Below are positions 42,612 to 56,483 of a stretch of DNA of 64,000 nt, piece after piece. The stretch lies in the IMG/VR virus record IMGVR_UViG_3300021387_000661, positions 192,001 through 256,000 of that record; one strand, given 5' to 3'. This DNA is from a virus. Its lineage: Duplodnaviria; Caudoviricetes. Every line of letters starts with the position of its first letter. Position 1 is the first letter of the stretch. The notes under the pieces were generated by a model. That model ran no database searches, was not told the DNA's origin, and saw nothing but the letters and a program-made list of their open reading frames with translations. The translations under genes were made by a program, and so were the position numbers.

Positions 42612-43050
42612 CGAACATATATCTGAAGAACTGGCCAGGAAACTTCTTGACTGGGGTTATCCCCTATTAAGTTATGCTCCTGGTACATATGATGGCGCTC
42701 CTTGTTTTGATATTCCAGGACCTGATGAACCTGGTTGGGCAGATGGTGACAGATACCAGATTCCCACATATGGTGAGGTGTTTGACTGGTTCTCAAGGGT
42801 AAAAGGTATTGTCATCACCCTTGAACCATTCCACACTTTTGCATTAAAAGGTCAGATAGGATATACCTGGAAGATAAACTATGTAGACCCTGAATTTGGT
42901 CTTGTATTGAGGACAGAAGAAAATGAATACCAATCAGGAGATGGATTTGGTGGTTCATTTAAACTCACTGCTGACGAAGCGATAAAGTCCGCAATGACTC
43001 TTGGTAAAAAGAAAGAGGAATATATTGAAGTAAACATTGATGAATTATAG
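42598..43050 (+). CDS. Hypothetical protein
   Basis: ORF track. Confidence 0.65.
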   Translation: MTNYSEHISEELARKLLDWGYPLLSYAPGTYDGAPCFDIPGPDEPGWADGDRYQIPTYGEVFDWFSRVKGIVITLEPFHTFALKGQIGYTWKINYVDPEFGLVLRTEENEYQSGDGFGGSFKLTADEAIKSAMTLGKKKEEYIEVNIDEL

Positions 43051-43052
43051 TT

Positions 43053-43364
43053 ATGGAAATTATTAAAGACTTGAATCCAGAAACCAGGAAATACAAATTC
43101 ATTCACTGGGGGTGTTGTGAGTTTACAGCCCTTGAAAATGAATTCAAATGGACTGCTGGACAATATAATGAGACAACTGCAAGTGTAGTTTGTCCAAAGT
43201 GTGGGAAACAGTTTTATCAAGATCCAGAAGAGATTAAACCAGAAACACCATCATTTGATGATTGGCCAAAGGTAACAAACTGTCCAAAGAATTGTAAGAT
43301 ATGTCAAGCCAAATGTTTATACAGGAAGGAGAAGTATAATGATTATGTGTCTCCAAAAGATTAA
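43053..43364 (+). CDS. Hypothetical Cys-rich protein
   Basis: ORF track. Confidence 0.6.
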   Translation: MEIIKDLNPETRKYKFIHWGCCEFTALENEFKWTAGQYNETTASVVCPKCGKQFYQDPEEIKPETPSFDDWPKVTNCPKNCKICQAKCLYRKEKYNDYVSPKD

Positions 43365-43431
43365 TTTTTTTGTTATATTTAATTTACATAAATACTTTAG
43401 AAAGTCAAAAATCAATTTACATAAATATAGT

Positions 43432-43503
43432 ATGATGACATTAAATAACATATCAAATAGGAAATCCGATTTAAGAAAATTGGATTCTTTTGGTGTGGTA
43501 TAA
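43432..43503 (+). CDS. Leader peptide 1 (MMTLNNISNRKSDLRKLDSFGVV) of putative tRNA-array attenuator
   Basis: 23-codon ORF after tandem TTTACATAAATA; overlaps alternative hairpins. Confidence 0.7.
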   Translation: MMTLNNISNRKSDLRKLDSFGVV

Positions 43504-43568
43504 TGTCAATAAGATAACAAGCATATCATCTAAAACCACACCTTTGAAAAAAGATGTGGTTTTTTTTG
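43436..43568 (+). promoter_or_regulatory. Attenuator 1: protector TGACATTA/TAATGTCA, antiterminator GGTGTGGT/ACCACACC, terminator AAAACCACA...TGTGGTTTT plus T run
   Basis: Mutually exclusive pairings read directly from the sequence. Confidence 0.7.
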
Positions 43569-43576
43569 ATAAAATA

Positions 43577-43608
43577 TTTGGAAGTTTAAAAAAAAGTTGT
43601 TATATTTG
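43577..43608 (+). promoter_or_regulatory. Bacteroidota sigmaA-type promoter
   Basis: TTTG-N20-TATATTTG. Confidence 0.7.
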
Positions 43609-43757
43609 TAGTGTTGAAAGTTCATTAAAATAAAGCCAATCCGCCCAGTCGGAAAAGTAAGATTATGGAAACATCCATGTGGGATGGTTTACGAATCATC
43701 AACACCGTCGATTCGGGACTTCTGAAATAAAAAAGTGGTACTTGACTTAAATTGATT

Positions 43758-43830
43758 GCAACCTTGGCGCAGTGGCTAGCGCAACTGACTTTTAATCAGT
43801 GGGTCTCGGGTTCGAATCCCGAAGGTTGCA
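43758..43830 (+). tRNA. tRNA-Lys(TTT)
   Basis: Cloverleaf; ACTGA-CT-TTT-AA-TCAGT. Confidence 0.93.
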
Positions 43831-44028
43831 CACAAAACATAAATTTATTTTGATATTTGAAAAATTTATGTTATATTTGTAATACACGTACCCAGGTTGA
43901 GATAAATTTTGCAAGAATTTATAATATAATTACTGATTCCCTGGGTTTTAAAATCCACAATGGCAGATGCGCACAGTCCCGGAGTGGTTGAGTGAGGAGG
44001 ACTTGCAATAACCTCCAAACAAAAGGAA

Positions 44029-44102
44029 GTCTTGTAGTTTAATGGTAGAATGCCTGCCTCGAAAGCAGGAGATGGATGCAGGGTTCGAATCCCCCCAAGA
44101 CA
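44029..44102 (+). tRNA. Atypical tRNA-Ser(CGA)-like
   Basis: CCTGC-CT-CGA-AA-GCAGG arm; weak T stem and no Ser-type variable arm. Confidence 0.45.
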
Positions 44103-44127
44103 ACAAAGTTAGTTCATTGAAAATATT

Positions 44128-44293
44128 GCCCTGGTGGTGGAATGGTAGACACGAGGGACTTAATTAGCAGAGTAAACTGTCTTAAAAAATCTTGTTTGGA
44201 AAATATAGGAACTTTGACAGGTTCAAATCCTGTTTCCAGACCAATCCCTTGGCCTGCAAGGCCTTGCGGGTTCGACTCCCGCCCGGGGCACCA
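44128..44293 (+). tRNA. tRNA-Leu(TAA) with 79-nt tRNA-like insertion (44164-44242)
   Basis: AGGGA-CT-TAA|insert|AA-TCCCT; long variable arm; encoded CCA. Confidence 0.85.
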
Positions 44294-44355
44294 ACATAGT
44301 TGATTCTGACTGTTGTCAGACTTGAGGTTAATGACAGGACCTTCAACTATTAAAT

Positions 44356-44434
44356 GCGGGTGTATCGCCACTGTCTTATACACAGTCATTAACAGCGTAA
44401 TTGGTGTATGGGGGTTCAAGTCCCTCCACCCGTA
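44356..44434 (+). tRNA. D-arm-less tRNA-Ile(TAT)-like
   Basis: GCGGGTG/CACCCGT acceptor, ACTGT-CT-TAT-AC-ACAGT, long variable region, T arm. Confidence 0.6.
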
Positions 44435-44447
44435 CAAGCTTATTTGA

Positions 44448-44625
44448 AACAGCACTGGTACAAGGATCCATACCAGTAAAGATGAGATGGTAGCGCTGAA
44501 GTCTACGAACCTTAACAGGAAGTATCCGGATTCAAACTCCTGTCCTGTGTTACGGAACCAGTCTGGGTCACCAGGGTTTAATTGGGATGGAAACACCCAA
44601 GGAAGAGAAACCACCTTATGCTGTT
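44448..44625 (+). ncRNA. Candidate structured ncRNA
   Basis: AACAGCA/TGCTGTT closing stem with internal hairpins (CTGGTA/TACCAG, TTGGG/CCCAA). Confidence 0.4.
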
Positions 44626-44629
44626 ATAT

Positions 44630-44701
44630 GCTTCCATAGGTCAACGGATAGACTGACTCTCCCCTAAAGAGTAGATACATGTTCAATTCATGTTGGGAGT
44701 A
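44630..44701 (+). tRNA. tRNA-Arg(CCT)
   Basis: ACTCT-CC-CCT-AA-AGAGT. Confidence 0.85.
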
Positions 44702-44713
44702 CAAAACATAAAT

Positions 44714-44787
44714 GGCCCCTTAGCTCAGCGGATCAGAGCAACAGCCTTCTAAGCTGTGGGTCCTGCGTTCGAATCGCAGAGGGGTCA
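44714..44787 (+). tRNA. tRNA-Arg(TCT)
   Basis: ACAGC-CT-TCT-AA-GCTGT. Confidence 0.95.
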
Positions 44788-44885
44788 CAAAAAAAGTTTA
44801 AAAGATAATGAGACAGTATAAACATAAACAGTAGTTGTGTTGGTATCATCCAGAAAGATGAGACCAACCAAGTCATATATGGAAA

Positions 44886-44960
44886 GGTCTCGTGGCGCAA
44901 CTGGATGAGCGCACCTGTCTTTTAAACAGGGTGTTATGGGTTCGAGTCCCATCGGGACCA
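44886..44960 (+). tRNA. tRNA-Lys(TTT)
   Basis: CCTGT-CT-TTT-AA-ACAGG. Confidence 0.92.
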
Positions 44961-44969
44961 CAAGGTATT

Positions 44970-45042
44970 GGCCTTGTAGCTTAGATGGTAGAGCACCACC
45001 CTTTTAAGGTGGGAGTCGTGGGTTCGAGCCCCACCGGGGTCA
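44970..45042 (+). tRNA. tRNA-Lys(TTT)
   Basis: CCACC-CT-TTT-AA-GGTGG. Confidence 0.92.
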
Positions 45043-45267
45043 CAAAGATTAAAGTTTGAAATATATGGGTGGCTTGCATGCAGTTCTTGATAAGTCAGAT
45101 ATAGTACTTACTGATACTGTCTTGAACCAGAGTAAAAAGACCGGTACCTGATTGCAATAAGTTCCCACCCACCCTTTACCTGACAGGTCGAGCGTGATAT
45201 GGTCGCCTGTATTCACCAGACGTGGAGAAGAGACATTGAAACTCTGTCAGGTTTTTAATAGATTATT

Positions 45268-45624
45268 ATGGAAAAGAAACCAAAGATAAAGTGGAAGAAT
45301 TTTAAAATCTGGATCAAAGACCAGTTCAAGAGGAAGACCTGGTTCAGAAACTTTTTCATCACTGGGAATGCCTGGGGAGGGTTCAGTATCAACTCTCACA
45401 TCAACCAACATACAGGTGAACCAAAGATAACATACAATCATCTTGAATCCGCCCAGAAGGCTGCTGACAAGATGGGACAGAAACACAACACACACTTCAG
45501 TGTTTACAAGTGTCTTTACTGTGATGGTTATCATATTGGAAAGAACAGGGAGAACAAGACAGATTATGACAAGAAGGTAGTTACAAATGTTGAAGTAAAA
45601 GACAAGACTTTAATACTTAAATAA
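45268..45624 (+). CDS. Hypothetical zinc-binding protein
   Basis: VYKCLYCDGYHIG. Confidence 0.65.
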   Translation: MEKKPKIKWKNFKIWIKDQFKRKTWFRNFFITGNAWGGFSINSHINQHTGEPKITYNHLESAQKAADKMGQKHNTHFSVYKCLYCDGYHIGKNRENKTDYDKKVVTNVEVKDKTLILK

Positions 45625-45625
45625 G

Positions 45626-46078
45626 ATGAACACACTTGAAAATACAATTCAGAAGGATCTGGTTCAGGCAATGAAGAACCATCAGGAACACACTGTTGCA
45701 GCATTGAGGTCTGTTAAGACTGCCATTATGGAAGTGAAGACCGCTGCCAATGGTAAGAAGGATTTGGAAGATGGTGACATTGTGAAGATCATCCAGAAGT
45801 TAGTTAAGCAAAGGAAGGAGAGTATGGACATCTATTCCCAGGCAGGTAGGCATGAACTTGCAGACAATGAGCAGCAGGAGATGTTTGTGTTGATGAACTA
45901 TCTTCCAAAGATGCTCACTGAATCAGAGGTGGAGGAAATTGTTGTGAAGACGATCGCAGACCTTGGTGCAACCTCAATGAAAGATATGGGAAAGGTGATG
46001 GGATTCATCAATAAGACTTATGCTGGACAGGTGGATGGTTCTATGGTATCAAGAATTGTTAAATCTAAATTAGGATAA
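45626..46078 (+). CDS. GatB/YqeY domain protein
   Basis: KQRKES...Y.QAGR.ELA..E, YLPKML, DMGKVMG. Confidence 0.92.
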   Translation: MNTLENTIQKDLVQAMKNHQEHTVAALRSVKTAIMEVKTAANGKKDLEDGDIVKIIQKLVKQRKESMDIYSQAGRHELADNEQQEMFVLMNYLPKMLTESEVEEIVVKTIADLGATSMKDMGKVMGFINKTYAGQVDGSMVSRIVKSKLG

Positions 46079-46079
46079 T

Positions 46080-46271
46080 ATGGCAAAGTTTGTTGTTTAT
46101 GCTCATGACAAGACTGATGTAGAATCAAATCTCATCTATGTATGTACCTGTGACACCAAAAATATGGCAAAGAGTATTACAAGTGCTATGAGGTTCAGGG
46201 ATTCCGGTGGAAGGAATGATGGGTCGGGTTTATATGATTATTATGTTAGAAAAGAAGATTGGATAGTATGA
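46080..46271 (+). CDS. Hypothetical protein
   Basis: ORF track. Confidence 0.55.
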   Translation: MAKFVVYAHDKTDVESNLIYVCTCDTKNMAKSITSAMRFRDSGGRNDGSGLYDYYVRKEDWIV

Positions 46272-46495
46272 AAACCTGGATTATAGTTTTAGCAATTGTA
46301 TTTGTTGTTTTAAAGTTAGTTCAGCGGTTTCTTGCAAACTATATCAGAAATGACAGATTGGAAAGTGTAAAATACTACTTTCTTGATGGTGCAACAACAC
46401 TTGGGGTGATACATGGACTTGTTTCTTTATTTTGTATATTGGTTGGTTGTACAGATTTGATTTTATTGTTTATTTATTTGTTGAATTTAGTATGA
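46268..46495 (+). CDS. Small membrane protein
   Basis: Two hydrophobic segments. Confidence 0.55.
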   Translation: MKTWIIVLAIVFVVLKLVQRFLANYIRNDRLESVKYYFLDGATTLGVIHGLVSLFCILVGCTDLILLFIYLLNLV

Positions 46496-46983
46496 AGAAT
46501 ATAGCATTGGTTGCCCATGATGGAAGAAAGAAAGAATTGATGGAGTGGGTAAGGTATAATTGGGAAACTCTTTCAAAGCATAATTTATATGCAACTGGTA
46601 CAACTGGAAAATTGATTAGTGGTATTGAAGTGGATCTTGGATTTGGTGGTGGAGAAGGAGTTTATAGGAGACAGATTGAGTATCCTTTGAGGAGTAAAGT
46701 AACATGTCTCAAATCTGGTCCACTTGGTGGAGATCAACAGATTGGAGCAATGATTGCAGAAGGAAAGATAGATGTATTGATATTTTTCTGTGACAATCTC
46801 ATTACACAAGGTCACCAGACAGATGTGTCTGCACTTACCAGACTTGCATCACTTTATAATATTGCATTTGCAACAAACAGGACAACTGCTGATATGATTC
46901 TTACATCACCATTGTTCAATGATGAAAATTATAAGATGATTGTTCCTGATGTGATTGAGAAATATAAAAACAGACAAATTTAA
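46492..46983 (+). CDS. mgsA: Methylglyoxal synthase
   Basis: IALVAHD..K, LYATGTTG, SGPLGGDQQIGA, H..DV.AL.R. Confidence 0.93.
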   Translation: MKNIALVAHDGRKKELMEWVRYNWETLSKHNLYATGTTGKLISGIEVDLGFGGGEGVYRRQIEYPLRSKVTCLKSGPLGGDQQIGAMIAEGKIDVLIFFCDNLITQGHQTDVSALTRLASLYNIAFATNRTTADMILTSPLFNDENYKMIVPDVIEKYKNRQI

Positions 46984-47081
46984 TAAAAACATAAATATTT
47001 TTATCTGGGATTTGGAAAATAAAATATTTTTTGTTATATTTGTATTGTTATTCAGAAAGAGTTCTTTGAATTTAGAAATAT

Positions 47082-47400
47082 ATAGGTCTTGTTGATGCTT
47101 TCAGGAAAGACTGTAGGACAAGGGTTCGAGTCCCTTCAGGTCCACAAATAAACACACTTAAGTCATCGGAGTACGCCTCTGTAATGATTGAGGAATTCAC
47201 TAAACGGTGTGGAAAATCAGGTTGAGTAGGCTTCGTATCTCAACCAACTTTGGGCCTGCCTGGTTTTGACTGCTTTTGAGTATGGAGAGTGGAGAGGTCT
47301 ATTGCCAATAACTGGCAAAAACAACGGTTTCTCTGTAAACTTTGGCCCTGTCGCACAGACAGCTACTCCAAAGGCTATGGTTGCTTTCGCTTAATTGCAG
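47082..47400 (+). ncRNA. ssrA: Circularly permuted (two-piece) tmRNA; tag (A)GKNNGFSVNFGPVAQTATPKAMVAFA*
   Basis: T arm and CAGGTCC-A (ends 47144) precede GGGCCTG-CCTGGTTTTGAC (47252); G3-U70 pair; ATAACT-GGC resume site at 47314; stop at 47394. Confidence 0.88.
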
Positions 47401-47505
47401 GCTTGAACATAGTAGATCTTTCACCAGGTGGATGATCCAGAGGGTTTCTCATTCCATCTTTCCAAATAAGATGGATACTTTGAAAGTTCTTTATAATAAA
47501 TATTT

Positions 47506-47681
47506 GGCCAGGTAGCTCAGCTGGTTTAGAGCAGCGGACTGTATAAGGAGTGGTTTACCGAAACAAACCAATCTGGTATAGTTTAATGGCAAAATGCCTC
47601 GGGTCGTAGATGATGGTGGTTCGATTCCACCTACCAGATCTAATCCGCGGGTCGTGGGTTCGAGTCCCTCCCTGGCCGCCA
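47506..47681 (+). tRNA. tRNA-Asn(GTT) with 98-nt tRNA-like insertion (47543-47640)
   Basis: GCGGA-CT-GT|insert|T-AA-TCCGC; G73 discriminator; CCA. Confidence 0.8.
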
Positions 47682-47683
47682 AA

Positions 47684-47763
47684 GTACATAGGATGTAAGT
47701 GCACACATATGTTGGGTTCGGGTATGATTAACCCACAGAGGTTTGAGTCCTCTCTATGTACCA
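47684..47763 (+). ncRNA. tRNA-like element (acceptor plus T arm, no canonical anticodon arm)
   Basis: GTACATAG/CTATGTAC; AGAGG-TTTGAGT-CCTCT. Confidence 0.55.
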
Positions 47764-47800
47764 AATATAAGTTCTTTGAAAAATAAAAACTTCATACAAT

Positions 47801-48071
47801 GGAGGAGTGGGAGAGTGGTTTATTCCAGCGGTCTTGTTAATTCGAGTGCTTCCAGAGGAATCTGGAAAGTAGAATTCCCCTAATTCGGTGGAACCTTAAC
47901 AGGTAATGCTGATGGTAATACCGAGCCAATGTTTAAAGACAGTGTGTAGAGACTTTACAGGGAACATCCAGAACGGATGAAGATAAAGTCCAGACCACAA
48001 TATGAAAGTAATGTGTGTAAGGAAAACCGCCGCTCCGAAAGGGGCCGTCGGTTCGAATCCGGCCTCCTCCG
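47801..48071 (+). tRNA. tRNA-Ser(TGA) interrupted by a group I intron
   Basis: GCGGT-CT-T|intron|GA-AA-ACCGC; long variable arm; G73. Confidence 0.88.
47836..48021 (+). mobile_element. Group I intron (186 nt, no ORF)
   Basis: Follows U and ends in G; P AATTCGGTGGAAC, Q AATACCGAGC, R GTGTAGAGACT, S AAGATAAAGTCC. Confidence 0.88.
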
Positions 48072-48259
48072 CTAAATATACAAATTTCAAAAAAGTTTGT
48101 TATATTTATTAAGGTTTTGTTATGTGTTTGTTTGTTTAAAGATTCATACCGCAACAATTAAAAGCTCAAACTGATAATTTGATTACTTTCTTTTGAATCT
48201 TGTTTTCTTTAACAAACATAAATTTAACCAGGCTTTTATAAACAATTAATAATTAAAGT

Positions 48260-48886
48260 ATGAAGAAATTTTTAGTATTTCTTATGAGTATTATGCTCAT
48301 GATTGGTGTGAGTGCATGTACTTGCTCCCAGCAGAAGAAAACTTCTGAACTAAAGGCTGGTGAACTGGTTGTTGAGAATGTCATCTCCCTTGACCGTCAG
48401 GCAATGAACCTTGCACATGGTGGTAATTACAGGTGGTTTGAGACTGGTGTTCAGCTCAAGAACTTCCTTGATGAGGAAAATGATGGTACCATTGATTTGG
48501 TTGTCAATGTTTTCCAGGTAGTTGAGGAGTATGATTCTACAAGTTTTGATACCTTTGTTTACAAGTATCAGCACTTCTCTGATGGTTCATTTAATGAGGA
48601 AGGTGTTCATGGTTTCTGGGTTGAAGATTACCCTCTTGAGAATGAAGCAATCAAGGTAACCTTCAAGGAAGCTTTTGAAAAGGTCCAGGAAGTTAATCTC
48701 CCTAAACCTCACACCCGTCAGGTAGTATTGAGGAAGCAGGTTGGTCCTGTTGAGGCAAATCCTCAGTGGATTTTTGGTAACCTCCATTCACAGATTTATG
48801 TTGATGCTGTGACTGGTGCAGTTTCAAAGGACAATCCTGCATTCAATGGTCTCAATCTTGGTACACCTCTTGGTGAATGGCCTTAA
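48260..48886 (+). CDS. Putative lipoprotein (PepSY-like C-terminus)
   Basis: MKKFLVFLMSIMLMIGVSAC lipobox; IYVDAVTGAV. Confidence 0.7.
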   Translation: MKKFLVFLMSIMLMIGVSACTCSQQKKTSELKAGELVVENVISLDRQAMNLAHGGNYRWFETGVQLKNFLDEENDGTIDLVVNVFQVVEEYDSTSFDTFVYKYQHFSDGSFNEEGVHGFWVEDYPLENEAIKVTFKEAFEKVQEVNLPKPHTRQVVLRKQVGPVEANPQWIFGNLHSQIYVDAVTGAVSKDNPAFNGLNLGTPLGEWP

Positions 48887-48967
48887 TAGAAATCGGTGAG
48901 GTAGTTAGTTTTGCACTCTCGTCATAAATAAAATGCAGACTTGGCAATCTGGAACAGACAGATATTA

Positions 48968-49092
48968 CTATGATGTGACAAGGAAGTGGAATACTTGCGC
49001 CACGAGATAATATCAGATGGAGGAAAGAGGAAGGGTTCTTCGTAAAAGTTGCCCAATAGGGAATGGAGGTTCGAGTCCTCCCATCATAGCCA
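48968..49092 (+). ncRNA. Enlarged tRNA-like element ending in CCA
   Basis: CTATGATG/CATCATAG; GGAGG-TTCGAGT-CCTCC. Confidence 0.55.
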
Positions 49093-49097
49093 AACAT

Positions 49098-49172
49098 TGC
49101 GGGGTAGACTGGAGAGGTTCCAGCCCGGTCTCATAAGCCGGTCCACGTGGGTTCGAATCCCACCCACCGCTA
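49098..49172 (+). tRNA. Initiator-type tRNA-Met(CAT)
   Basis: CCGGT-CT-CAT-AA-GCCGG; 1:72 mismatch. Confidence 0.75.
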
Positions 49173-49177
49173 CTAAA

Positions 49178-49226
49178 TGCCAGTATAAGACAGTATATAT
49201 GTAAGTTCAACTCTTACTATTGGCGC
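49178..49226 (+). ncRNA. tRNA minihelix (acceptor plus T arm only)
   Basis: GCCAGTA/TATTGGC; GTAAG-TTCAACT-CTTAC; 15-nt linker. Confidence 0.55.
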
Positions 49227-49324
49227 AAAAAAATACAAAATATTTTCATAAATATTTGGATATTTCAAATTTTTTTGTTATATTTGTATTGTTAAGTTCT
49301 TTGATAAATATTGTAAAAATATAA

Positions 49325-50170
49325 GGGTGGGTTTCTCATCCTTCCTGTATCCTTCGGGAGAAAGGAGAAAGATAACCAGTGAATACATAAGCTGGGAAAG
49401 TCAGTGTGGCGCAATCTTGCCCCTGGCGGAGGAGTTTTCCTCTCTACAAGAAAACCAAGGCAGTCAGCATATCCTGGAATGGCAGGACACTGTGAAAGGG
49501 ATATGCGGGGGTTCTTACCAAGTCTCCTTGAGTGGTAACACTGACAAGTGCTGTTTTGCTTCCAGACAAGAAGATTACCAGTCTTATGGTTTGGATGACC
49601 AAAGTTTATTGATGTCCAAAAGGAATTACCAGATTCCTCTAACAGGTGGTGCTGAGATCAGAAATGGTTGGATGTTAGAATGAGTAGAATGAGTAACACA
49701 GCGGTGTGTGAAAATAGAAAGGCGATGTATCTAACCCTCTCAAAAGGAGGCAGGATAGCAAGGGCAACCTCGTCTTTCAAATGGTAGAGTGCTAAATGAT
49801 TCATTAAAGATTATGACCAAAATGATCAATAAAAAATTATTAAGCAAGCAAAAGTGTTGCCCACACTACAGGACAATATGGTTATGCTTCTGTGATATGA
49901 AGCCTTATGGAACTCGCAAGGTGAAGTAAGAGTATTGTAAGTAGGGACAATGCAAGAGGAGGCATCCTCTTAACTCGGCAGAGGTCTTTGGCTTGAACAC
50001 ATCTATATAATGTAGTGTAGTGACTGTGGTAGTCTTGGTGGAAACACCATAAATCCATCCATATCCTCCTTACCAGTAGCGATGCTGGTGTGTATAAACT
50101 CTGGGCGACCAGGGCTTGTCCTGAAAGGGAAGAGAACAGGAGGCGATTAGGGTCAACACTCAGCCCCAAT
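49325..50170 (+). ncRNA. Giant structured ncRNA, GOLLD-like
   Basis: About 850 nt of GC-elevated, gene-free sequence after a promoter inside the tRNA array; many hairpins; ACAGGTGGTGCTG, GCAAAAGTG and 3' CTCAGCC motifs recalled from GOLLD-like RNAs (not verified). Confidence 0.55.
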
Positions 50171-50397
50171 CAAACAAAAATTTATTCAGTGTCAGTAACC
50201 AGTCTGGTATGGAAGAGCGAGACTTCCCCGAATAACAAAAGTCATTTCATAAAGGTACAGAACCTCTGCGAAATAGAACCACAAGGAGGGTTTTCCAAGG
50301 CCAGGGACTTGACTTGAAACATACTTTCTTGGGTTCTAAAGGAAGTTGAAGAGTGAGTTTGCATTCAGTCTATGAGTGGTTTTATCTCTTCATCCAT

Positions 50398-50472
50398 AGT
50401 GCGTTAGTTCAGCCTGGTTAGAATGCCACACTGTCACTGTGGAGGTCACGGGTCCGAATCCCGTACGCACTG
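50398..50472 (+). tRNA. tRNA-Asp(GTC)
   Basis: CCACA-CT-GTC-AC-TGTGG; G73. Confidence 0.92.
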
Positions 50473-50706
50473 CAAATGGTAAAGAACCATACCGCAACAT
50501 TTGAATGAAATACATTTTTGGGTTATGTAGCAATTTTGGTTCTTGTTTTTCCTTGTTTAGCAAAACAAGGTGGTGGAGTTGGGTGGAAACACTGTCCTCT
50601 GTGAGTGGTAATCTCACATAAATAACTTACCATTTATTTTGAAATTTTAATTTACATAAATATATTAGAAAGTAATTTACATAAATACTTTAAAAGAATA
50701 AAAATT

Positions 50707-50829
50707 ATGATGACATTGCATACACATATGGTATTTGCTGCTATTGCAGGTAAGCCAGGTTGCTACCGTTTTTGGGAACAACTCGGACAGAAGGGTGTGT
50801 GTATGTCATCTGAAAATGAAAAACAATAA
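50707..50829 (+). CDS. Leader peptide 2 (MMTLHTHMVFAAIAGKPGCYRFWEQLGQKGVCMSSENEKQ) of putative tRNA-array attenuator
   Basis: 40-codon ORF after tandem TTTACATAAATA; contains 19 of 20 amino acids. Confidence 0.7.
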   Translation: MMTLHTHMVFAAIAGKPGCYRFWEQLGQKGVCMSSENEKQ

Positions 50830-50923
50830 GTGGAGACCATTATAGGAGAAAGGTTAAAACTTAAACAAATATAGAAGAACGACATCTCACACAAATCACA
50901 AAAAGGTTTATGTGAGATTTTTT
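50709..50923 (+). promoter_or_regulatory. Attenuator 2: protector GATGACAT-T-GCATACA/TGTGTGT-ATGTCATC, antiterminator with GACATCTCACACA, terminator ATCTCACA...TGTGAGAT-TTTTT
   Basis: Mutually exclusive pairings; first tRNA begins about 10 nt downstream. Confidence 0.7.
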
Positions 50924-50932
50924 AATTTATAT

Positions 50933-51008
50933 TGGGTAGTGCGGTAGTTGGTCACCGGCTGCATTTGGGATGCAGACATTCACGCAGGTTCGAGTCCTGT
51001 CTACCCAA
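50933..51008 (+). tRNA. tRNA-Pro(TGG)
   Basis: CTGCA-TT-TGG-GA-TGCAG. Confidence 0.85.
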
Positions 51009-51018
51009 CAAAGTGAAT

Positions 51019-51093
51019 GGGCTGGGTAGTGTAATCTGGAAGCACATCACTCTGGCAGAGTGAAGGATGGGGTTCAAATCCCCCCTGTGTCCA
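51019..51093 (+). tRNA. tRNA-Ala(GGC), irregular acceptor stem
   Basis: TCACT-CT-GGC-AG-AGTGA; G3-U70. Confidence 0.75.
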
Positions 51094-51115
51094 CAAAGAT
51101 AATAAAACAAAGTTT

Positions 51116-51358
51116 ATGGAGACACTCAAACAGATTGTAAAAGGTAGTGCAAAATTGGACTGCATCAAGAGTGGTGGTGTTGCTGAATACATCATTACAT
51201 CAGAAAGCAACAACAAATATATGTTGGAAATAGATTTATCTGATAAAGTTGATTGTGGAGAGAGTGCATCATTTATGCCTTTTTATGAGAAAGCTATAAT
51301 TCTTATGCGATGGATTCGTCGTGCGATGGATAAAGGTGAATTAATTGAACTTTGTTAA
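51116..51358 (+). CDS. Hypothetical protein
   Basis: ORF track. Confidence 0.65.
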   Translation: METLKQIVKGSAKLDCIKSGGVAEYIITSESNNKYMLEIDLSDKVDCGESASFMPFYEKAIILMRWIRRAMDKGELIELC

Positions 51359-51420
51359 AAAAATACTAAAAGATTTGGAAGTTTCAAATATTTTTGTTAT
51401 CTTTGCAGTAGAAAATAAAT

Positions 51421-51495
51421 GCTGGGATATCTGCTAGTGGTCCAGGCGATGTGCCTTTCAAGCATGTGACACGGGTTCGAATCCCGTTCCCAGTA
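51421..51495 (+). tRNA. tRNA-Glu(TTC)
   Basis: TGTGC-CT-TTC-AA-GCATG. Confidence 0.8.
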
Positions 51496-51654
51496 CAAAG
51501 GAGTGAAGGGAAAATCCAACCAACACTTCACATAGAGCGAAACAGAACCTGATAATGATTCCTGCTGAAGGATAAGGCAAGGTGAAGATAGGGGTTCAAT
51601 GAGGTTGAAATGATGCATGCTCAAAGTAAACAATATATAATGCTCGACAATTAT

Positions 51655-51732
51655 GGAGCTGTCGTATAGGTGGTTATTGTACAATGGACTGAAAATCCAT
51701 AGGCAGTGGTTCAACTCCACTCGGCTCCACCA
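51655..51732 (+). tRNA. tRNA-Phe(GAA)
   Basis: ATGGA-CT-GAA-AA-TCCAT; CCA. Confidence 0.9.
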
Positions 51733-51940
51733 AGGTTTGGTGTAAGGTGACTTGCATTGATGAGAGTAAATGAAGATAGGATGAATGATCAACATCCAAA
51801 AAGAAATGAAATCATCTAAAGTCAAACCAATGAAATCATTACAGATACTAGTCAATGTAGTGAGGAAATTGCAGAGGCATTTAGCACACCTGTCTATGTC
51901 ACAGGTGATTCATAAGCAAGTAAAGTGAGACCTTGACCTC

Positions 51941-52022
51941 CGGGATGTGCTGGAACTGGTAGACAGACCAGACTAAGGATCTGGTGCTGCAAGGCGTGAG
52001 GGTTCGAGTCCCTCCATCCCGA
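51941..52022 (+). tRNA. tRNA-Leu(AAG)
   Basis: CCAGA-CT-AAG-GA-TCTGG; long variable arm. Confidence 0.88.
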
Positions 52023-52182
52023 CTTGATGTAAAAAGACGTTAAACCTTGTGGGAGTTAGTCTTCTCCCTTGTGGGATAATGGTGCCGGCATCATAGTAGA
52101 TTGCCAAGGAAACTGCCCGAGTCAGCGGGGTCTGAACAGTGGGGTTCGATACCCTGGGCACCATCAAAAAAGTTCTTTGATT

Positions 52183-52255
52183 GTCTCTGTAGCTCAATTG
52201 GTAGAGCACCTGACTCTTAATCAGGGGGTTCCGAGTTCGAGCCTCGGCAGGGACA
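52183..52255 (+). tRNA. tRNA-Lys(CTT)
   Basis: CCTGA-CT-CTT-AA-TCAGG. Confidence 0.95.
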
Positions 52256-52430
52256 CAAAACAAATGCCGGTTTATCACAGTATATTGGTGACTGTGGCTG
52301 CCCTGTACAGGTGGGTTTGACTTCAAGTGAAAGTATACAGCTCGAGACAATGTATATGAGTAAAGGTCAGATATGGGTTTGGTTCGATTCCCCCGATGGC
52401 ACAAAGTTCTTTGAATTGTTATATTTAAAT

Positions 52431-52507
52431 GGGCCGGGTAGTGTAAAGGTTTAGCACGTCACACTTGCACTGTGACAGAGGGGTTCGAATCCCACCTGTG
52501 TCCACCA
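52431..52507 (+). tRNA. tRNA-Ala(TGC), irregular acceptor stem
   Basis: TCACA-CT-TGC-AC-TGTGA; CCA. Confidence 0.75.
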
Positions 52508-52608
52508 CTTATTACCATATTATCTTTCAGAGAAATGGTTGACTAAAACTCGCAGACTCATCCGGTAATTGGTTGTAAAAGTGCAGTTAAAGGTTAGATG
52601 AGTATTTT

Positions 52609-52682
52609 GGGCTTGCATGTACCAAGGTTGGCGGAACTCCCTTGCAAGGAGATCGTGGAGGGTTCGATTCCCTTCGGGTCCA
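52609..52682 (+). tRNA. tRNA-Ala(TGC), atypical D arm
   Basis: CTCC-CT-TGC-AA-GGAG; GGGCTTG/CGGGTCC. Confidence 0.7.
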
Positions 52683-52757
52683 CAAAACAGGTGAAGTTGT
52701 CATACATATAAGCCTGTTTCACAAGTTCAGAAGGTGATGCATACACACTGACTTGTC

Positions 52758-52916
52758 GGCATATGAGAGTGTCGGAGACACACAGAAGTGGAAACCACAT
52801 TCAGGATTGAATTGAAGTGCAAATAGATTCTTTCTGTTAGGATGAAGGTCTGCCGGACACAAAGCTCGCCAGGAAGATTACCCTGGAAATACTTGGTTCG
52901 ACTCCAAGATATGCTA
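52758..52916 (+). ncRNA. Enlarged tRNA-like element
   Basis: GGCATAT/ATATGCT; CTTGG-TTCGACT-CCAAG; internal GTGTCGG/CCGGACAC. Confidence 0.5.
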
Positions 52917-53037
52917 CAAAATCACAGAGTGCCCAGAGCATTGAAGCATTGAAGGTATGATGCTTTTGAACAAGTTTGAACCCTGTAATCGAAAGAGGGC
53001 AATGCAGCAAGCAATACTTTGTGAGATAACAACTTTT

Positions 53038-53111
53038 CTATGGTATCATATAGAGGTTAGTATGGCGGTCATTCAGTGCTGCAACAGAGGTTCGATTCCT
53101 CTTACCATAGC
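53038..53111 (+). tRNA. Atypical tRNA with 8-nt anticodon loop (identity unclear)
   Basis: TATGGTA/TACCATA; GCGGT-CATTCAGT-GCTGC; good D and T arms. Confidence 0.5.
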
Positions 53112-53118
53112 AACATTT

Positions 53119-53210
53119 GGGTAGGTAACGGCGCTGGACTGTAAATCCAGTCTGAACACAAATTGTCGTATTGGCCTTGCAGTAAGGGGGTTCGAGTCCC
53201 TCCCTACCCA
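53119..53210 (+). tRNA. D-arm-less tRNA-Tyr(GTA)-like
   Basis: GGGTAGG/CCTACCC; CTGGA-CT-GTA-AA-TCCAG; long variable region. Confidence 0.6.
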
Positions 53211-53217
53211 CACAAAT

Positions 53218-53291
53218 GCGGAGTTAGTTCAACGGTAGAATGTCAGCCTTCCAAGCTGAATATGAGGGTTCGATTCCCTTACTCCGCTCCA
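53218..53291 (+). tRNA. tRNA-Gly(TCC)
   Basis: TCAGC-CT-TCC-AA-GCTGA; CCA. Confidence 0.95.
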
Positions 53292-53376
53292 AACTGTGGG
53301 TGTAGTGTAATATTATAGATTCAGCACACAGGGGATACCCTGGAATGATGGTATGAAATCCATCCACTCATAACAT

Positions 53377-53451
53377 ACCGATGTAGCTCAGTTGGTGGAG
53401 AGCGACAGATTCATATCCTGTAGGTCATTGGTTCGAACCCAATCATCGGTA
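53377..53451 (+). tRNA. tRNA-Met/Ile2(CAT)
   Basis: ACAGA-TT-CAT-AT-CCTGT. Confidence 0.8.
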
Positions 53452-53464
53452 CATATAATTAAAA

Positions 53465-53635
53465 ATGATATTATGGATAACTGTGGGGCTAAAAGAGTAT
53501 CTGTTTAATGAGTGGAAATATAATGTACACAAAAGATACTTGAAATACTTTGATGAATGGTATGACAATCTTCTGGATTCCCAGAAAGAATTTTACAAGA
53601 GTTGGATGGAAGGGTATATGAGTCCATATCATTAG
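53465..53635 (+). CDS. Small hypothetical protein (56 aa)
   Basis: Manual translation MILWITVGLKEYLFNEWKYN...; below the ORF-track cutoff. Confidence 0.5.
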   Translation: MILWITVGLKEYLFNEWKYNVHKRYLKYFDEWYDNLLDSQKEFYKSWMEGYMSPYH

Positions 53636-53664
53636 GTCTTTGAAATGTTGATTATGAATTATAT

Positions 53665-53755
53665 AGGTCGGTGGCCGAGTGGTTGAAGGCGGCGGTCTCC
53701 AAAACCGTTAGGATATTTTGAAAAATCCTCGAGGGTTCGAATCCTTCCCGGCCTG
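53665..53755 (+). tRNA. tRNA-Trp(CCA) with long variable arm
   Basis: GCGGT-CT-CCA-AA-ACCGT; AGGAT/ATCCT extra arm; G73. Confidence 0.8.
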
Positions 53756-53763
53756 CTTAAGAT

Positions 53764-53835
53764 TGAGGTATGGTGTAATGGCCAGCACCTTGGATTTTGG
53801 TTCCAATAGTCCAGGTTCGAATCCTGGTACCTCAA
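53764..53835 (+). tRNA. tRNA-Gln(TTG)
   Basis: TTGGA-TT-TTG-GT-TCCAA. Confidence 0.93.
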
Positions 53836-53843
53836 CAAAAAAT

Positions 53844-53917
53844 GTCGGGTTGGCCGAGCGGTCAGGTCCTGGTCTGCAAAACCAGTTAGATTGGTTCGAC
53901 TCCAATACCCGACTCCA
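53844..53917 (+). tRNA. tRNA-Cys(GCA)
   Basis: CTGGT-CT-GCA-AA-ACCAG; U73, CCA. Confidence 0.93.
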
Positions 53918-53920
53918 TTT

Positions 53921-53992
53921 GCCCCTGTAGTGTAATGGATCGCACACAGCACTACGGATGCTTTAGAGAGGGTTCGAGTCCTTCCAGGGGTA
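53921..53992 (+). tRNA. tRNA-Arg(ACG)
   Basis: AGCA-CT-ACG-GA-TGCT. Confidence 0.88.
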
Positions 53993-54113
53993 CAAAATTA
54001 TAAATATAATAGATGGTCTTTGACGAAAGAATCGTATCGCAGTTGAGCTTTGTCCTCACTGACAGAAACGTAAGTCTGGGGTGTACTACAAGCCTGTGAT
54101 TGTAGTATTTTTT

Positions 54114-54185
54114 GCGGCATTCGTATAATGGTTATTATACCAGCTTGCCATGCTGGGGACGGGAGTTCGATTCTCCCATGCCGCT
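54114..54185 (+). tRNA. tRNA-Gly(GCC)
   Basis: CCAGC-TT-GCC-AT-GCTGG. Confidence 0.92.
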
Positions 54186-54193
54186 CTCAATAT

Positions 54194-54270
54194 GGTGACT
54201 GTGGCCGAGTGGTTTAGGCGCAACACTGTGGATGTTGTTTACGTCAGTTCGAGTCTGACCAGTCACCCCA
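54194..54270 (+). tRNA. tRNA-His(GTG)
   Basis: G-1/C73; CAACA-CT-GTG-GA-TGTTG; CCA. Confidence 0.93.
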
Positions 54271-54281
54271 AAAATAAAGTT

Positions 54282-54662
54282 ATGGAAAAGGTAGTAAGAT
54301 TTTTTAAACAAGATAATAAGTGGTATGCAGATATTCCAAACCACACTCTTGAAGAGAATGAGATGGTAATGGGTGCAGATATTGCTCTTGAGTATCTTGC
54401 AGAAGAGAGGAAAGAGTTACACATCACATTCACAGATGAGAATCCAGGATGGAATGTTCCTCTGGCACTCACTCTGAAAGATCATGATGATGAGGGTGGA
54501 TACTATGATGTATCAGGAATTCTCTTTATGGATTTTATGCTCACTTATGGTAAAGAGTTCATTGGAGTCAAACCACAGGTTTGGATTTGTAATGTTACAC
54601 ATGATGTATTTGGTGAACATCCAGAACACATTTACATCACAAAGATTGAATCAAAACATTAG
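54282..54662 (+). CDS. Hypothetical protein (DUF6717-like)
   Basis: Start re-placed at MEKVVRFF; WY.D, MVMGAD, WICNV...FG..P..IYI. Confidence 0.7.
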   Translation: MEKVVRFFKQDNKWYADIPNHTLEENEMVMGADIALEYLAEERKELHITFTDENPGWNVPLALTLKDHDDEGGYYDVSGILFMDFMLTYGKEFIGVKPQVWICNVTHDVFGEHPEHIYITKIESKH

Positions 54663-54664
54663 TT

Positions 54665-54988
54665 ATGGACAAAGATTTTAAGAAGAGGTTCTTAATGAAC
54701 CGTGATGAGACAGGTAGGTTCATTGTCAAGTCAATGAAGACTGGTAAATCCTATTATGTTGAAGCAATTGATGGTGACGAAAGGACTATCTGGGGAGATG
54801 TGGATCCAGTAACAAAAAAGTTGACAGGTAGTTATGGTGACAAGTACAAGGGAAGTATCAGACCTGAACAGTCACTTATTACCAATGAGAATGGGTTTGA
54901 CAAGATTCATACTCTTGGTCCTGGGGAATCACCATTGGATTATATTAACAGGATTGATGATGAGTACTTTGAAAAGATGAGTAAATAG
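54665..54988 (+). CDS. Hypothetical phage protein
   Basis: ORF track. Confidence 0.7.
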   Translation: MDKDFKKRFLMNRDETGRFIVKSMKTGKSYYVEAIDGDERTIWGDVDPVTKKLTGSYGDKYKGSIRPEQSLITNENGFDKIHTLGPGESPLDYINRIDDEYFEKMSK

Positions 54989-54996
54989 TTTTTTGG

Positions 54997-55078
54997 GGGA
55001 GAGTCGCATAGTGGCAATTGCAAGGGACTGTAAATCCCTCGCCTTCGGGCTTCAGAGGTTCGAGTCCTCTCTCTCCCA
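54997..55078 (+). tRNA. tRNA-Tyr(GTA)
   Basis: AGGGA-CT-GTA-AA-TCCCT; variable arm. Confidence 0.93.
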
Positions 55079-55193
55079 CAGCCTATCAACCAAGTTGTTG
55101 AAAAGGGTAACGGATGCGCAGCGATTGCGGATCTTGCAAGTTTTTCGCCAGGGTTTCCTTGGTCTCTTTGAGATGAATAAATCTTGGATTTAT

Positions 55194-55275
55194 GGGGGTG
55201 TGGTGGAATGTAGACACCCCAGACTTAGGATCTGGTGCCAGTAATGGCGTGAGGGTTCGAGTCCCTCCATCCCCA
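55194..55275 (+). tRNA. tRNA-Leu(TAG)
   Basis: CCAGA-CT-TAG-GA-TCTGG. Confidence 0.9.
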
Positions 55276-55410
55276 CACTGACACTACTCTATGAGTAGAT
55301 GTCTTGGTTGGTCACAATACTGTAATTGTGATAGTCCTCTGGGACTTAAAAGAGTTGCAGTGATGCAATCTGTCAAGGTCAGTCTGGAACCAGTTAATCC
55401 AGACATTTAT

Positions 55411-55493
55411 GCAGCAGTGGTGGAATGGTAGACACGCTACTTTGAGGGGGTAGTCTGGGCAACTGGGTGTGAGTTCGAGTCTCACCTGCCGCA
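55411..55493 (+). tRNA. tRNA-Leu(GAG)
   Basis: CTACT-TT-GAG-GG-GGTAG. Confidence 0.88.
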
Positions 55494-55501
55494 CAAAACA
55501 T

Positions 55502-55574
55502 AGCGGTATAGCGCAATTGATAGAGCATCAGATTCTGGCTCTGAAGGTTGGGAGTTTGAACCTCTCTACCGCTA
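55502..55574 (+). tRNA. tRNA-Gln(CTG)
   Basis: TCAGA-TT-CTG-GC-TCTGA. Confidence 0.8.
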
Positions 55575-55676
55575 CAAACAAAAAAGGGTGGGTCAACCAG
55601 GTAAAGGCAGGGTAAGTCTCTGGTTCTTCTCTGATGATGGCGCAAGTAGTCAGAGTTTCTTAAATTACCCATATAT

Positions 55677-55751
55677 GGGTGTGTAACTCAGTTGGTACAG
55701 AGTACCTGTCTGATACACAGGAAGTCGATGGTTCAAGTCCATCCACACCCA
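55677..55751 (+). tRNA. tRNA-Ile(GAT)
   Basis: CCTGT-CT-GAT-AC-ACAGG. Confidence 0.92.
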
Positions 55752-55760
55752 CACAAATAT

Positions 55761-55835
55761 GGTCCTGTCGTCTAGTCTGGCCAAGGACATCACCCTCTCA
55801 AGGTGGAGACCCGGGTTCAAATCCCAGTGGGACTA
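55761..55835 (+). tRNA. tRNA-Glu(CTC)
   Basis: TCACC-CT-CTC-AA-GGTGG. Confidence 0.88.
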
Positions 55836-55917
55836 CAAAAAATATTTCAAATTTATTTTGAAATTAAAAATATTTTTGTTATATTTGTATTACAAAAAAG
55901 TTCATTGACATATAATA

Positions 55918-56014
55918 AGTGATGACTACATAGACATAATCAATGCCACAATGTTGAGCTCTTGAGAATATGGCAGATAAAAGTCTTTAGACAAACTCAA
56001 CTATGGTCATCACT
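55918..56014 (+). ncRNA. Candidate pseudoknotted ncRNA
   Basis: AGTGATGAC/GTCATCACT closing stem; TGCCA/TGGCA crossed by GTTGAG/CTCAAC. Confidence 0.45.
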
Positions 56015-56021
56015 AAATTAT

Positions 56022-56394
56022 AAGAACAGCAAGATGGGGTACTGATAATCTTCACACAAGGAGTTCTAGATTGAGGGTGTGTGAAGGAAAGGTATAAATA
56101 TTGTTAAAGAGGAATACCTGACCCCTGTCCAATTGTGGCAAGTGGAGAAATATGGATTGTCTATCTGGGGTTCTCCTGTCCTCTGACAACAGTGACTACG
56201 GAAGTCTGTTGTGTTCTTTTATTATATTGAGAATCCAAGGTGGGTGCTTTTATAGAATACTCTCTTAAAATGGATAGAGAGGAAAGAAGTGTAATATAGG
56301 TGAAGTTTCTTAGTTGTTACACATCCTGGTGATGGGGAATGTCATCACGGTGAGACTTCAAGAAGGTGACTACGGAAATCCTTTTGTTCTCAAT
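56022..56394 (+). ncRNA. Two tandem related structured RNAs sharing GTGACTACGGAA
   Basis: Units 56022-56218 and 56226-56394, each closed by a terminal stem. Confidence 0.55.
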
Positions 56395-56400
56395 TTCTAT

Positions 56401-56483
56401 GCCCGAGTGGGGGAATGGTAGACCCAGCAGACTCAAAATCTGCCGTCTGCAAAGACGTGCGAGTTCGACTCTCGCCTCGGGCA
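56401..56483 (+). tRNA. tRNA-Leu(CAA)
   Basis: GCAGA-CT-CAA-AA-TCTGC. Confidence 0.93.

Follow-up and report, generated by a model that had tools for sequence, protein, structure and literature searches.

Why would each of two blocks of tRNA genes in a giant-phage genome be headed by a short open reading frame (ORF), a set of mutually exclusive RNA helices and an intrinsic terminator? The question is raised by a 64,000-nucleotide stretch of DNA, here called the window, which comprises bases 192001-256000 of a 344,746-bp IMG/VR virus record (IMGVR_UViG_3300021387_000661). Roughly 38 tRNA genes are found in the window, all at 43758-63110 on the + strand, and two leader cassettes divide this array into block 1 (43758-50473) and block 2 (50933-63110). 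We think it likely that the cassettes are two paralogous ribosome-mediated (leader-peptide) transcription attenuators, one per tRNA block, each gauging how the codons of its own block are decoded. Judged from the sequence, a block is probably transcribed more when its codons are decoded slowly. An earlier note on this DNA, the original prediction, had proposed attenuation of this type for the first cassette, and its reading is largely supported by permutation, frame, ortholog, co-variation and folding tests.

Anatomy of the two leader cassettes

Cassette 1 heads block 1 and is built from the following elements:

43383-43394, + strand: TTTACATAAATA box 1, a phage-type promoter-like motif, kept in relatives
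43416-43427, + strand: TTTACATAAATA box 2, with the leader 1 ATG 16 nt from the start of the box
43432-43503, + strand: leader ORF 1, encoding MMTLNNISNRKSDLRKLDSFGVV and ending in a stop codon; 23 codons, of which codons 4-19 are all block-1 codons
43436-43508, + strand: helix 1:2 (anti-antiterminator or pause hairpin), -25.6 kcal/mol, enclosing nearly the whole of ORF 1
43492-43542, + strand: helix 2:3 (antiterminator), in which GGTGTGGT (43492-43499) pairs with ACCACACC (43535-43542) over 8 bp
43532-43567, + strand: helix 3:4, the intrinsic terminator, -13.2 kcal/mol; stem 43532-43563, T8 tract 43560-43567

Helix 1:2 is closed by TGACATTA (43436-43443) pairing with TAATGTCA (43501-43508), and the leader 1 stop codon lies inside the 3' arm of this helix in all variants. 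The helix 2:3 duplex has an energy of -15.0 kcal/mol, a value reached by none of 200 shuffled segment 2 sequences. The stretch 43425-43575 folds at -43.8 kcal/mol, compared with a shuffle mean of -21.5 (z = -6.6), and none of 200 shuffles was as stable. The original prediction had described tandem boxes ahead of a 23-codon ORF, the identity of codons 4-19 and a protector pairing between TGACATTA and TAATGTCA, all of which we find in the sequence. Its antiterminator pairing is also present, with GGTGTGGT at 43492-43499 instead of 43491-43498, and the terminator that it placed at 43532-43568 exists with a different end coordinate, as listed above.

We read TTTACATAAATA as a putative phage-specific promoter element because the motif is rare and always lies upstream of an ORF. 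Allowing at most one mismatch, the window contains nine matches where 1.2 are expected; exact copies number 10 in the 345-kb genome, five of them in the tRNA region, and every copy is 5' of an ORF or a leader. The 16-nt spacing between box and ATG in leader 1 equals the spacing before a called 221-aa gene in the relatives L254 and L256. Most leader 1 variants keep the motif AAGCGTATCATC in the spacer between helix 1:2 and the terminator (43509-43531); given its partial complementarity to the ATGATGA start region, the motif could pair with the start codons.

The paralogous cassette 2 (50651-50923) heads block 2 and repeats this plan:

50651-50662 and 50676-50687, + strand: tandem TTTACATAAATA boxes
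50707-50829, + strand: leader ORF 2, 40 codons, opening with ATGATGACATT as leader 1 does
50709-50810, + strand: helix 1:2, -36.3 kcal/mol
50793-50897, + strand: helix 2:3, formed by segment 2, GGGTGTGTGTATGTCA (50793-50808), and segment 3, CGACATCTCACAC (50880-50892); duplex -14 kcal/mol
50884-50923, + strand: terminator, -12.8 kcal/mol

Both cassettes therefore hold a complete 1:2, 2:3 and 3:4 arrangement ending in a U tract. Behind cassette 2, tRNA-Pro begins 10 nt past the terminator, with no promoter between them. Codons 3-33 of leader 2 cover 17 different amino acids. Its stop codon lies 18 nt beyond segment 2, and termination with a ribosome there would depend on helix 1:2 re-forming. 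The leader 2 tail (50806-50826) has a composition of its own: the block-1 codons TCA, TCT, AAT and AAA (GAT in relatives) cluster past segment 2 in nearly all variants, and a ribosome stalled in this tail would cover segment 2, favouring termination.

Leader codons, relatives and array content

The tRNA genes served by the two leaders are as follows:

43758-50473, + strand: tRNA block 1, first part, Lys-TTT (three genes), a tRNA-like gene with anticodon CGA, Leu-TAA (with insertion) and an Ile-TAT-like gene
43758-50473, + strand: tRNA block 1, second part, Arg-CCT, Arg-TCT, Asn-GTT (with insertion), Ser-TGA (with insertion), CAT and Asp-GTC
50933-63110, + strand: tRNA block 2, first part, Pro, Ala, Glu, Phe, Leu-AAG/TAG/GAG/CAA, Lys-CTT, Gly and Met
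50933-63110, + strand: tRNA block 2, second part, Trp, Gln (two genes), Cys, Arg-ACG, His, Tyr, Ile-GAT, Val, Thr-TGT and Ser-GCT

Standard wobble rules assign each sense codon except CGG to block 1, block 2 or both. Under this assignment, block-1 tRNAs can read every one of codons 4-19 in leader 1, and block-2 tRNAs every one of codons 1-33 in leader 2, where block-1 codons are confined to the tail. Block-1 codons make up 38% of phage gene codons. Judged against gene codon usage, the comparison that the original prediction had put forward as a permutation test, the run of 16 consecutive block-1 codons in leader 1 has P = 2e-7, and the leader 2 run has P = 1e-5. When the peptides are held fixed, synonymous choices alone fall in the correct block with P = 5e-3 for leader 1 and 1e-2 for leader 2. 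A six-frame scan of the 345-kb genome returned two block-1 runs of at least 16 codons, leader 1 among them, and nine block-2 runs of at least 33 codons, leader 2 among them. Over all variants, block-1 codons occupy 94% of leader 1 in frame 0 versus 33% and 31% in the other frames, which are interrupted by stops (19 and 33 of 182 codons). The corresponding block-2 figures for leader 2 are 99.7% in frame 0 versus 72% and 84%. The codon match is a property of the reading frame, not of base composition.

Codon boxes split between the blocks illustrate the choice at the level of the isoacceptor. Leader 1 uses AAA for Lys, AGG or AGA for Arg and ATA for Ile; leader 2 uses AAG, CGT and ATT, respectively, CGT being 6.7% of the Arg codons in phage genes. 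All eight block-1 anticodon species are touched by leader 1, and 21 of the 25 block-2 species by leader 2, versus 16 on average in simulations (P = 0.003). L254 and L255, two divergent relatives, encode Ser by AGT in the sensing part of leader 2, a codon read by the block-2 Ser-GCT tRNA, and by TCA in the tail.

Relatives were found by DNA pattern scans and a peptide profile search. The cassettes are present in two further IMG/VR giant-phage records, G001 (153 kb) and G002 (411 kb), and in many metagenome contigs, one of which carries a human gut label. The comparison set consists of 13 distinct DNA variants per leader, three more divergent loci and 29 database peptides homologous to leader 2; 15 DNA variants of leader 1 and 16 of leader 2 entered the frame check, and the relatives and variants number ~30 overall. 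A tighter pattern run on the metagenome collection yielded the useful relatives; the loose pattern ACATAAATA-N-ATGATGAC was swamped by chance matches and was abandoned. A blastn search of 43000-44200 against GenBank phages gave tRNA-like and promoter-like fragments but no relative, the 103-aa protein encoded upstream of leader 1 had no relative in IMG/VR, and the leader 2 peptide profile run against IMG/VR recovered only an already-known genome.

All variants keep the start, the open frame (23-24 codons in leader 1, 36-41 in leader 2) and the terminator. Over the ~30 variants, energies range from -22 to -40 kcal/mol for helix 1:2, from -14 to -18 for the antiterminator and from about -11 to -16 for the terminator; the degenerate variant L155 has -11.5 and -9.5 kcal/mol for the antiterminator and terminator. 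The original prediction had suggested a search for orthologous leaders, and in ~15 leader 1 variants the frame, hairpin and terminator are retained and the stop codon stays within the 3' arm. Helix 1:2 of leader 1 shows compensatory changes at 11 pairs (RNAalifold), its terminator is near-invariant over 13 sequences, and at the RNA level the terminator and GGTGTG segments do not vary. In leader 2, helix 2:3 carries two independent compensatory changes relative to ATGTC/GACAT in the window, namely ACGTC/GACGT in L012, where segment 1 is changed as well, and ATGCC/GGCAT in L256.

The two ORFs vary in different ways. In leader 2, the first codon position has 12 variable sites, the second 11 and the third 26, and indels are in frame. 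In its core, KPGCYRFWEQLG, changes fall almost only at third codon positions, and the peptide is (near-)invariant in the 13 DNA variants and largely kept in the 29 database peptides. Coding and structural constraints overlap in leader 2, since predicted G-U pairs tolerate some of its third-position changes as well. In leader 1, the peptide sequence is not conserved and the codon class is: replacements such as N/D, K/R, R/N and L/S remain within the block-1 set. About 10 of 14 leader 1 substitutions stay in the block-1 set by a hand count, which we judge not significant because, by a rough estimate, half of the single-nucleotide neighbours of block-1 codons are also block-1 codons.

Leader codons also change with the content of the array, a co-variation that the original prediction had suggested looking for and that accompanies the relocation of Thr and Phe tRNAs. 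A Thr-TGT tRNA lies in block 1 of L151, L255, L189 and L220 only. In three of these four, leader 1 carries one more Thr codon: L151 and L255 both have ACA as codon 11, and L189 has ACC as codon 17. Two of the three additional codons are inside the sensing window. The genomes without a block-1 Thr tRNA (the window, G001, G002 and L254) have no Thr codon at those positions; the closely related pair L254 and L255 differ in this way, L254 lacking both the tRNA and the extra codon. In L220, block 1 contains tRNA-Phe(GAA), and block 2 lacks it at the usual position after tRNA-Pro. Leader 1 of L220 has TTC and TTT inside the antitermination window, and its leader 2 (...CYRPWEQ...) has no Phe codon; all other DNA-read leader 2 sequences have one or two. 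The database peptide P0021, from the same lineage as L220, lacks Phe too. By a rough estimate, the three contrasts would jointly arise by chance about once in a thousand, the contrasts themselves being few.

Proposed mechanism, its weak points and competing explanations

On the attenuation model, transcripts would start at the TTTACATAAATA boxes, with the leader 1 start probably at or beside the AUG. With no ribosome on the leader, or with a ribosome at the stop codon, helix 1:2 would form or segment 2 would be covered, so that terminator 3:4 folds and transcription stops before the tRNA genes. If a charged block tRNA were scarce, a ribosome would stall in the 5' part of the leader and cover segment 1; segments 2 and 3 would then pair, no terminator would form, and RNA polymerase would enter the tRNA block. 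The newly made tRNAs would relieve the stall, closing a negative feedback on tRNA supply. Two separate loops would operate, one for Lys-AAA, Asn, Asp, Arg-AGR, Ile-ATA, Leu-TTA and Ser-TCN and the other for the remaining tRNAs. From the sequence we infer that the leaders are translated in vivo, that transcription and translation are coupled, and that the leaders respond to tRNA supply under some physiological trigger.

The model was examined by folding the nascent transcript, cut before the terminator 3' arm, with a 30-nt ribosome mask. Equilibrium folding of the complete transcript had been uninformative, as the terminator was always retained; nascent folding was informative. Without a ribosome, leader 1 forms helix 1:2 and no antiterminator. 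Placing the A site at any of codons 2-13 or at codon 16 makes the 8-bp helix 2:3 the minimum free energy (MFE) structure; placing it anywhere from codon 17 to the stop does not. In 14 of 15 leader 1 variants, the antitermination window extends from A-site codon 1 to about 16. Block-1 codons concentrate in this window, and the four block-2 codons at the 3' end of leader 1 fall outside it.

We also lean, with less assurance, towards a fuller version of this model in which the leaders provide demand-sensing feedback on the phage tRNA arrays. Each leader would be a codon inventory that co-evolves with its block, detecting failing decoding and raising transcription of the block in response. Candidate causes of failing decoding are a mismatch with host codon usage, decay of host tRNAs and anticodon nucleases.

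What the attenuators can gate depends on promoters of another type. The Bacteroidota sigma-A promoter consensus, TTTG-N19-21-TAnnTTTG, has 19 matches in the window versus 1.7 expected (~11-fold), on the + strand only, and this enrichment points to a Bacteroidota host. The source is a giant phage of the gut or rumen, and the G+C content of the window is ~30-45%. One such promoter directly follows cassette 1:

43577-43608, + strand: host-type promoter (Bacteroidota sigma-A-like), TTTG-N20-TATATTTG, right after terminator 1

It is kept behind every leader 1 terminator in the relatives, in line with the caveat of the original prediction that a host-type promoter at 43577 would limit gating. Since this promoter follows terminator 1, attenuator 1 would gate only transcripts from the TTTACATAAATA boxes, and attenuator control may matter mainly when the host-type promoters are off.

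Several observations weigh against attenuation as proposed here, the position of these promoters being the first. Host-type promoters lie at 43577 and inside the blocks (43849, 47011, 49255, 51374, 55857 and 56785), and much tRNA transcription may bypass the attenuators; with the promoter at 51374, the promoter-free reach of cassette 2 covers tRNA-Pro and tRNA-Ala only. Second, the single-ribosome model of leader 2 gives antitermination at codons 2-10 only, and its conserved core (codons 15-27) would need queued or trailing ribosomes to keep segment 1 covered. This single-ribosome geometry is the weak point of the model for cassette 2. Third, the codon match has blemishes. In most genomes, the ACA (Thr) at leader 1 codon 3 belongs to block 2, stray mismatched codons occur (GGT in L188, AAC and GAC in L254 leader 2, AAA in G001 leader 2), and some anticodons of the insertion-bearing tRNAs hinge on where the splice junction is placed. 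L220 has a block-1 Thr-TGT tRNA without an extra leader 1 Thr codon, so the co-variation rule is not strict. Unlike hisL and trpL with their codon runs, the leaders devote just one or two codons to each tRNA; sensitivity to a partial tRNA shortage is doubtful, and with one codon per tRNA the response should be mainly to severe shortage. Fourth, the helix 2:3 strands of leader 1 are invariant and give no covariation support, and its variable sites (12, 12 and 14 at codon positions 1, 2 and 3) show no periodicity. Moreover, KPGCYRFWEQLG could be strictly conserved because the peptide itself has a function.

This last point is the starting point of an improbable alternative, in which each cassette is a small gene in its own right that merely lies ahead of a tRNA block, has a promoter and terminator to itself, and encodes a micropeptide (23 or 40 aa) or a trans-acting structured small RNA. 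The changes in the conserved leader 2 core are mostly synonymous, as such a peptide would have it, and the predicted terminated RNAs would be stable hairpins of ~140 and ~220 nt. Trans-acting products of attenuators are documented as well: in Sinorhizobium, the attenuator-derived rnTrpL RNA and peTrpL peptide are described as acting in trans (PMC7968998, PMC7298713). A free-standing gene would, however, have no use for the shared architecture or for the alternative pairing of helix 2:3 with the terminator, and the codon partition and array co-variation would be left unexplained. What is conserved in leader 1 is the codon class alone and not the peptide sequence. No protein family match was found, Pfam returning nothing for either leader peptide beyond a sub-threshold DUF5606 match. 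A trans role could also exist alongside attenuation.

We regard as quite improbable the proposal that the leaders are translated attenuators reporting the general status of translation or coupling (ribosome availability, infection stage or defence-driven shut-off), their codon make-up being a by-product of fitting each leader to the tRNAs then available. The anatomy and its conservation fit a general sensor equally well, and so does the presence of just one or two codons per tRNA; the host-type promoters within the blocks, which weaken block-specific control, are also easier to accommodate. Against this reading, a general sensor needs neither two leaders with complementary, frame-specific codon sets nor opposite choices in split codon boxes, and it does not predict Phe and Thr codon changes that track tRNA relocation.

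It is hardly credible that the ORFs are untranslated and that promoter-proximal hairpins and terminators insulate the array or mark the processing or stability of tRNA precursors, with the codon match a composition effect: the leader 1 5' arm is A-rich, as are the codons read by block-1 tRNAs, leader 1 has no third-position bias, and the terminator and GGTGTG segments are invariant in RNA, but the other frames match less (31-33% in leader 1, where they contain stops, and 72-84% in leader 2), composition is already counted in the genome-wide six-frame scan, leader 2 has coding-type substitutions and in-frame indels, the frame and the stop-codon position are kept in all variants, and the Phe/Thr co-variation goes beyond composition.

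The tRNA arrays and their proposed control in a wider setting

Several members of the block-1 tRNA set are unusual. Default ARAGORN misses the block-1 Leu-TAA, Asn-GTT, Ile-TAT and Ser-TGA genes. ARAGORN with introns allowed, together with Rfam, recovers Leu-TAA (44128-44293), Asn-GTT (47506-47681) and Ser-TGA (47801-48072), and Ile-TAT (44356-44434) is an atypical, weak tRNA prediction. Anticodon-loop insertions of 80-190 nt are present in these three tRNAs (44128-44293, 47506-47681 and 47801-48072) and in those at 58751-58905 and 59753-59904. The tRNA class (a long variable arm in Leu and Ser) agrees with the assignments of the original prediction, and so does block 1 of relatives, where G001 has intron-less forms of Leu-TAA, Asn-GTT and Ser-TGA, and G002 has a clean Ile-TAT. 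A check of the exons by pairwise alignment was clear for Ser-TGA, partial for Leu-TAA and poor for Asn and Ile. The block-1 tRNA set is the same in G001, G002, L254 and L255, as is the split between blocks 1 and 2. On these grounds (intron-allowed ARAGORN, Rfam, tRNA class and the block 1 of relatives), the block-1 list of the original prediction was right. The insertions look recent, because block 1 of G001 has the intron-less forms. The tRNA-Asn insertion itself holds a tRNA-like unit (~47573-47640).

Between its tRNA genes, block 1 also has protein genes and RNAs resembling tmRNA and GOLLD. The permuted-tmRNA-like gene (47053-47485, +) has an ARAGORN tag peptide, GKNNGFSVNFGPVAQTATPKAMVAFA, and scores 41.7 bits with Rfam tmRNA_permuted, below the threshold; G001 block 1 has a similar gene (L009 5372-5718). 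The GOLLD RNA-like match (49717-50166, +) reaches 87.6 bits (E = 2.9e-22), below the Rfam gathering score of 150. A 77-nt tRNA-like gene (44028-44104) is near-identical to a copy in G002 (L251 8820-8896) except in the anticodon stem-loop, where the loop is CTCGAAA in the window and TGAGAAA in G002. The gene lacks the long variable arm and so does not qualify as a canonical Ser tRNA. In the distant relatives, block 2 ends with a tRNA whose CTA anticodon would read TAG (L254 18354-18427 and L255 18362-18433), a hint of amber recoding in these phages; no such tRNA was found in the window. Relatives also carry LuxS (PF02664) and YqeY (PF09424) domain genes in or beside block 1:

L254 958-1464 and 5307-5759: LuxS/YqeY domain genes
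L255 4533-4985 and 6602-7108: LuxS/YqeY domain genes
L256 321-827: LuxS/YqeY domain gene

The window ORF at 45626-46078 (150 aa) equals the relatives' YqeY gene in size, this being a comparison of size only.

Multivalent leaders are familiar from enterobacteria, where ilvGMEDA is controlled through Ile, Leu and Val codons and thr through Thr and Ile, alongside trpL, hisL, leuL and pheL. The phage cassettes resemble the ilvGMEDA and thr leaders in having a short leader ORF just past a (here putative) promoter, exclusive 1:2, 2:3 and 3:4 helices and an intrinsic terminator. In both cases more than one amino acid is involved, and the regulatory codons are so placed that a ribosome stalled on them would leave segment 2 free. 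The differences from amino-acid operon leaders concern what is regulated and how finely. The regulated genes are phage tRNA genes here and biosynthetic enzymes there; one or two codons stand for each of ~8 or ~21 tRNA species, as opposed to runs for one to three amino acids; and the choice is made at the isoacceptor level (AAA/AAG, AGR/CGT, ATA/ATT), with two leaders sharing out the genetic code.

The E. coli pheST attenuator, in which leader Phe codons control phenylalanyl-tRNA synthetase, is closer in that a component of the decoding machinery is controlled with feedback via charged tRNA. Unlike pheST, which senses one amino acid and controls a protein gene, the product here would be the sensed tRNA itself, making the loop more direct. 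T-box riboswitches bind one uncharged tRNA directly via a specifier codon, without a ribosome or an ORF, and control aminoacyl-tRNA synthetase and amino-acid genes. The phage leaders would share with them a terminator/antiterminator decision in the 5' leader, taken on tRNA status codon by codon. A T-box is marked by Stem I with its specifier loop and by a conserved T-box sequence in the antiterminator bulge; neither cassette 1 (43380-43568) nor cassette 2 (50645-50925) matched this or any other Rfam family when 43300-51000 was scanned at E up to 5.

The mechanism is thus of a known kind (the ilv, thr and pheST type), and what is new is the regulated product, the near-complete codon inventory, the isoacceptor choice and the complementary pair of leaders. 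We know of no case in which attenuation controls tRNA genes or in which a leader lists nearly the whole codon table, and the literature that we searched held no description of attenuators on phage tRNA arrays. The published work that we found on such arrays deals with which tRNAs are carried, not with demand-sensing control of their transcription. Phage tRNAs can offset tRNA cleavage by PARIS AriB (PMC12409363). Like counter-defence tRNA arrays, the array described here is a large phage-borne set, and its block 1 has three genes for Lys-UUU, a known class of nuclease target.

If the attenuation reading is true, the tRNA arrays of phages would be regulated by measured decoding demand and not by timing alone. 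This bears on why large phages carry many tRNAs, whether for codon supply, host shut-off or counter-defence: the leader codons would say which shortages the phage expects, and the question becomes testable. A tRNA block preceded by a short ORF and a terminator, the codons of the ORF matching the anticodons of the block, would be a simple genomic signature usable for annotating the tRNA operons of uncultured phages. For engineering, the leaders would offer a compact natural sensor of tRNA availability at the isoacceptor level. If other phage lineages did the same, phage translation would be subject to a general layer of control that has so far gone undescribed.

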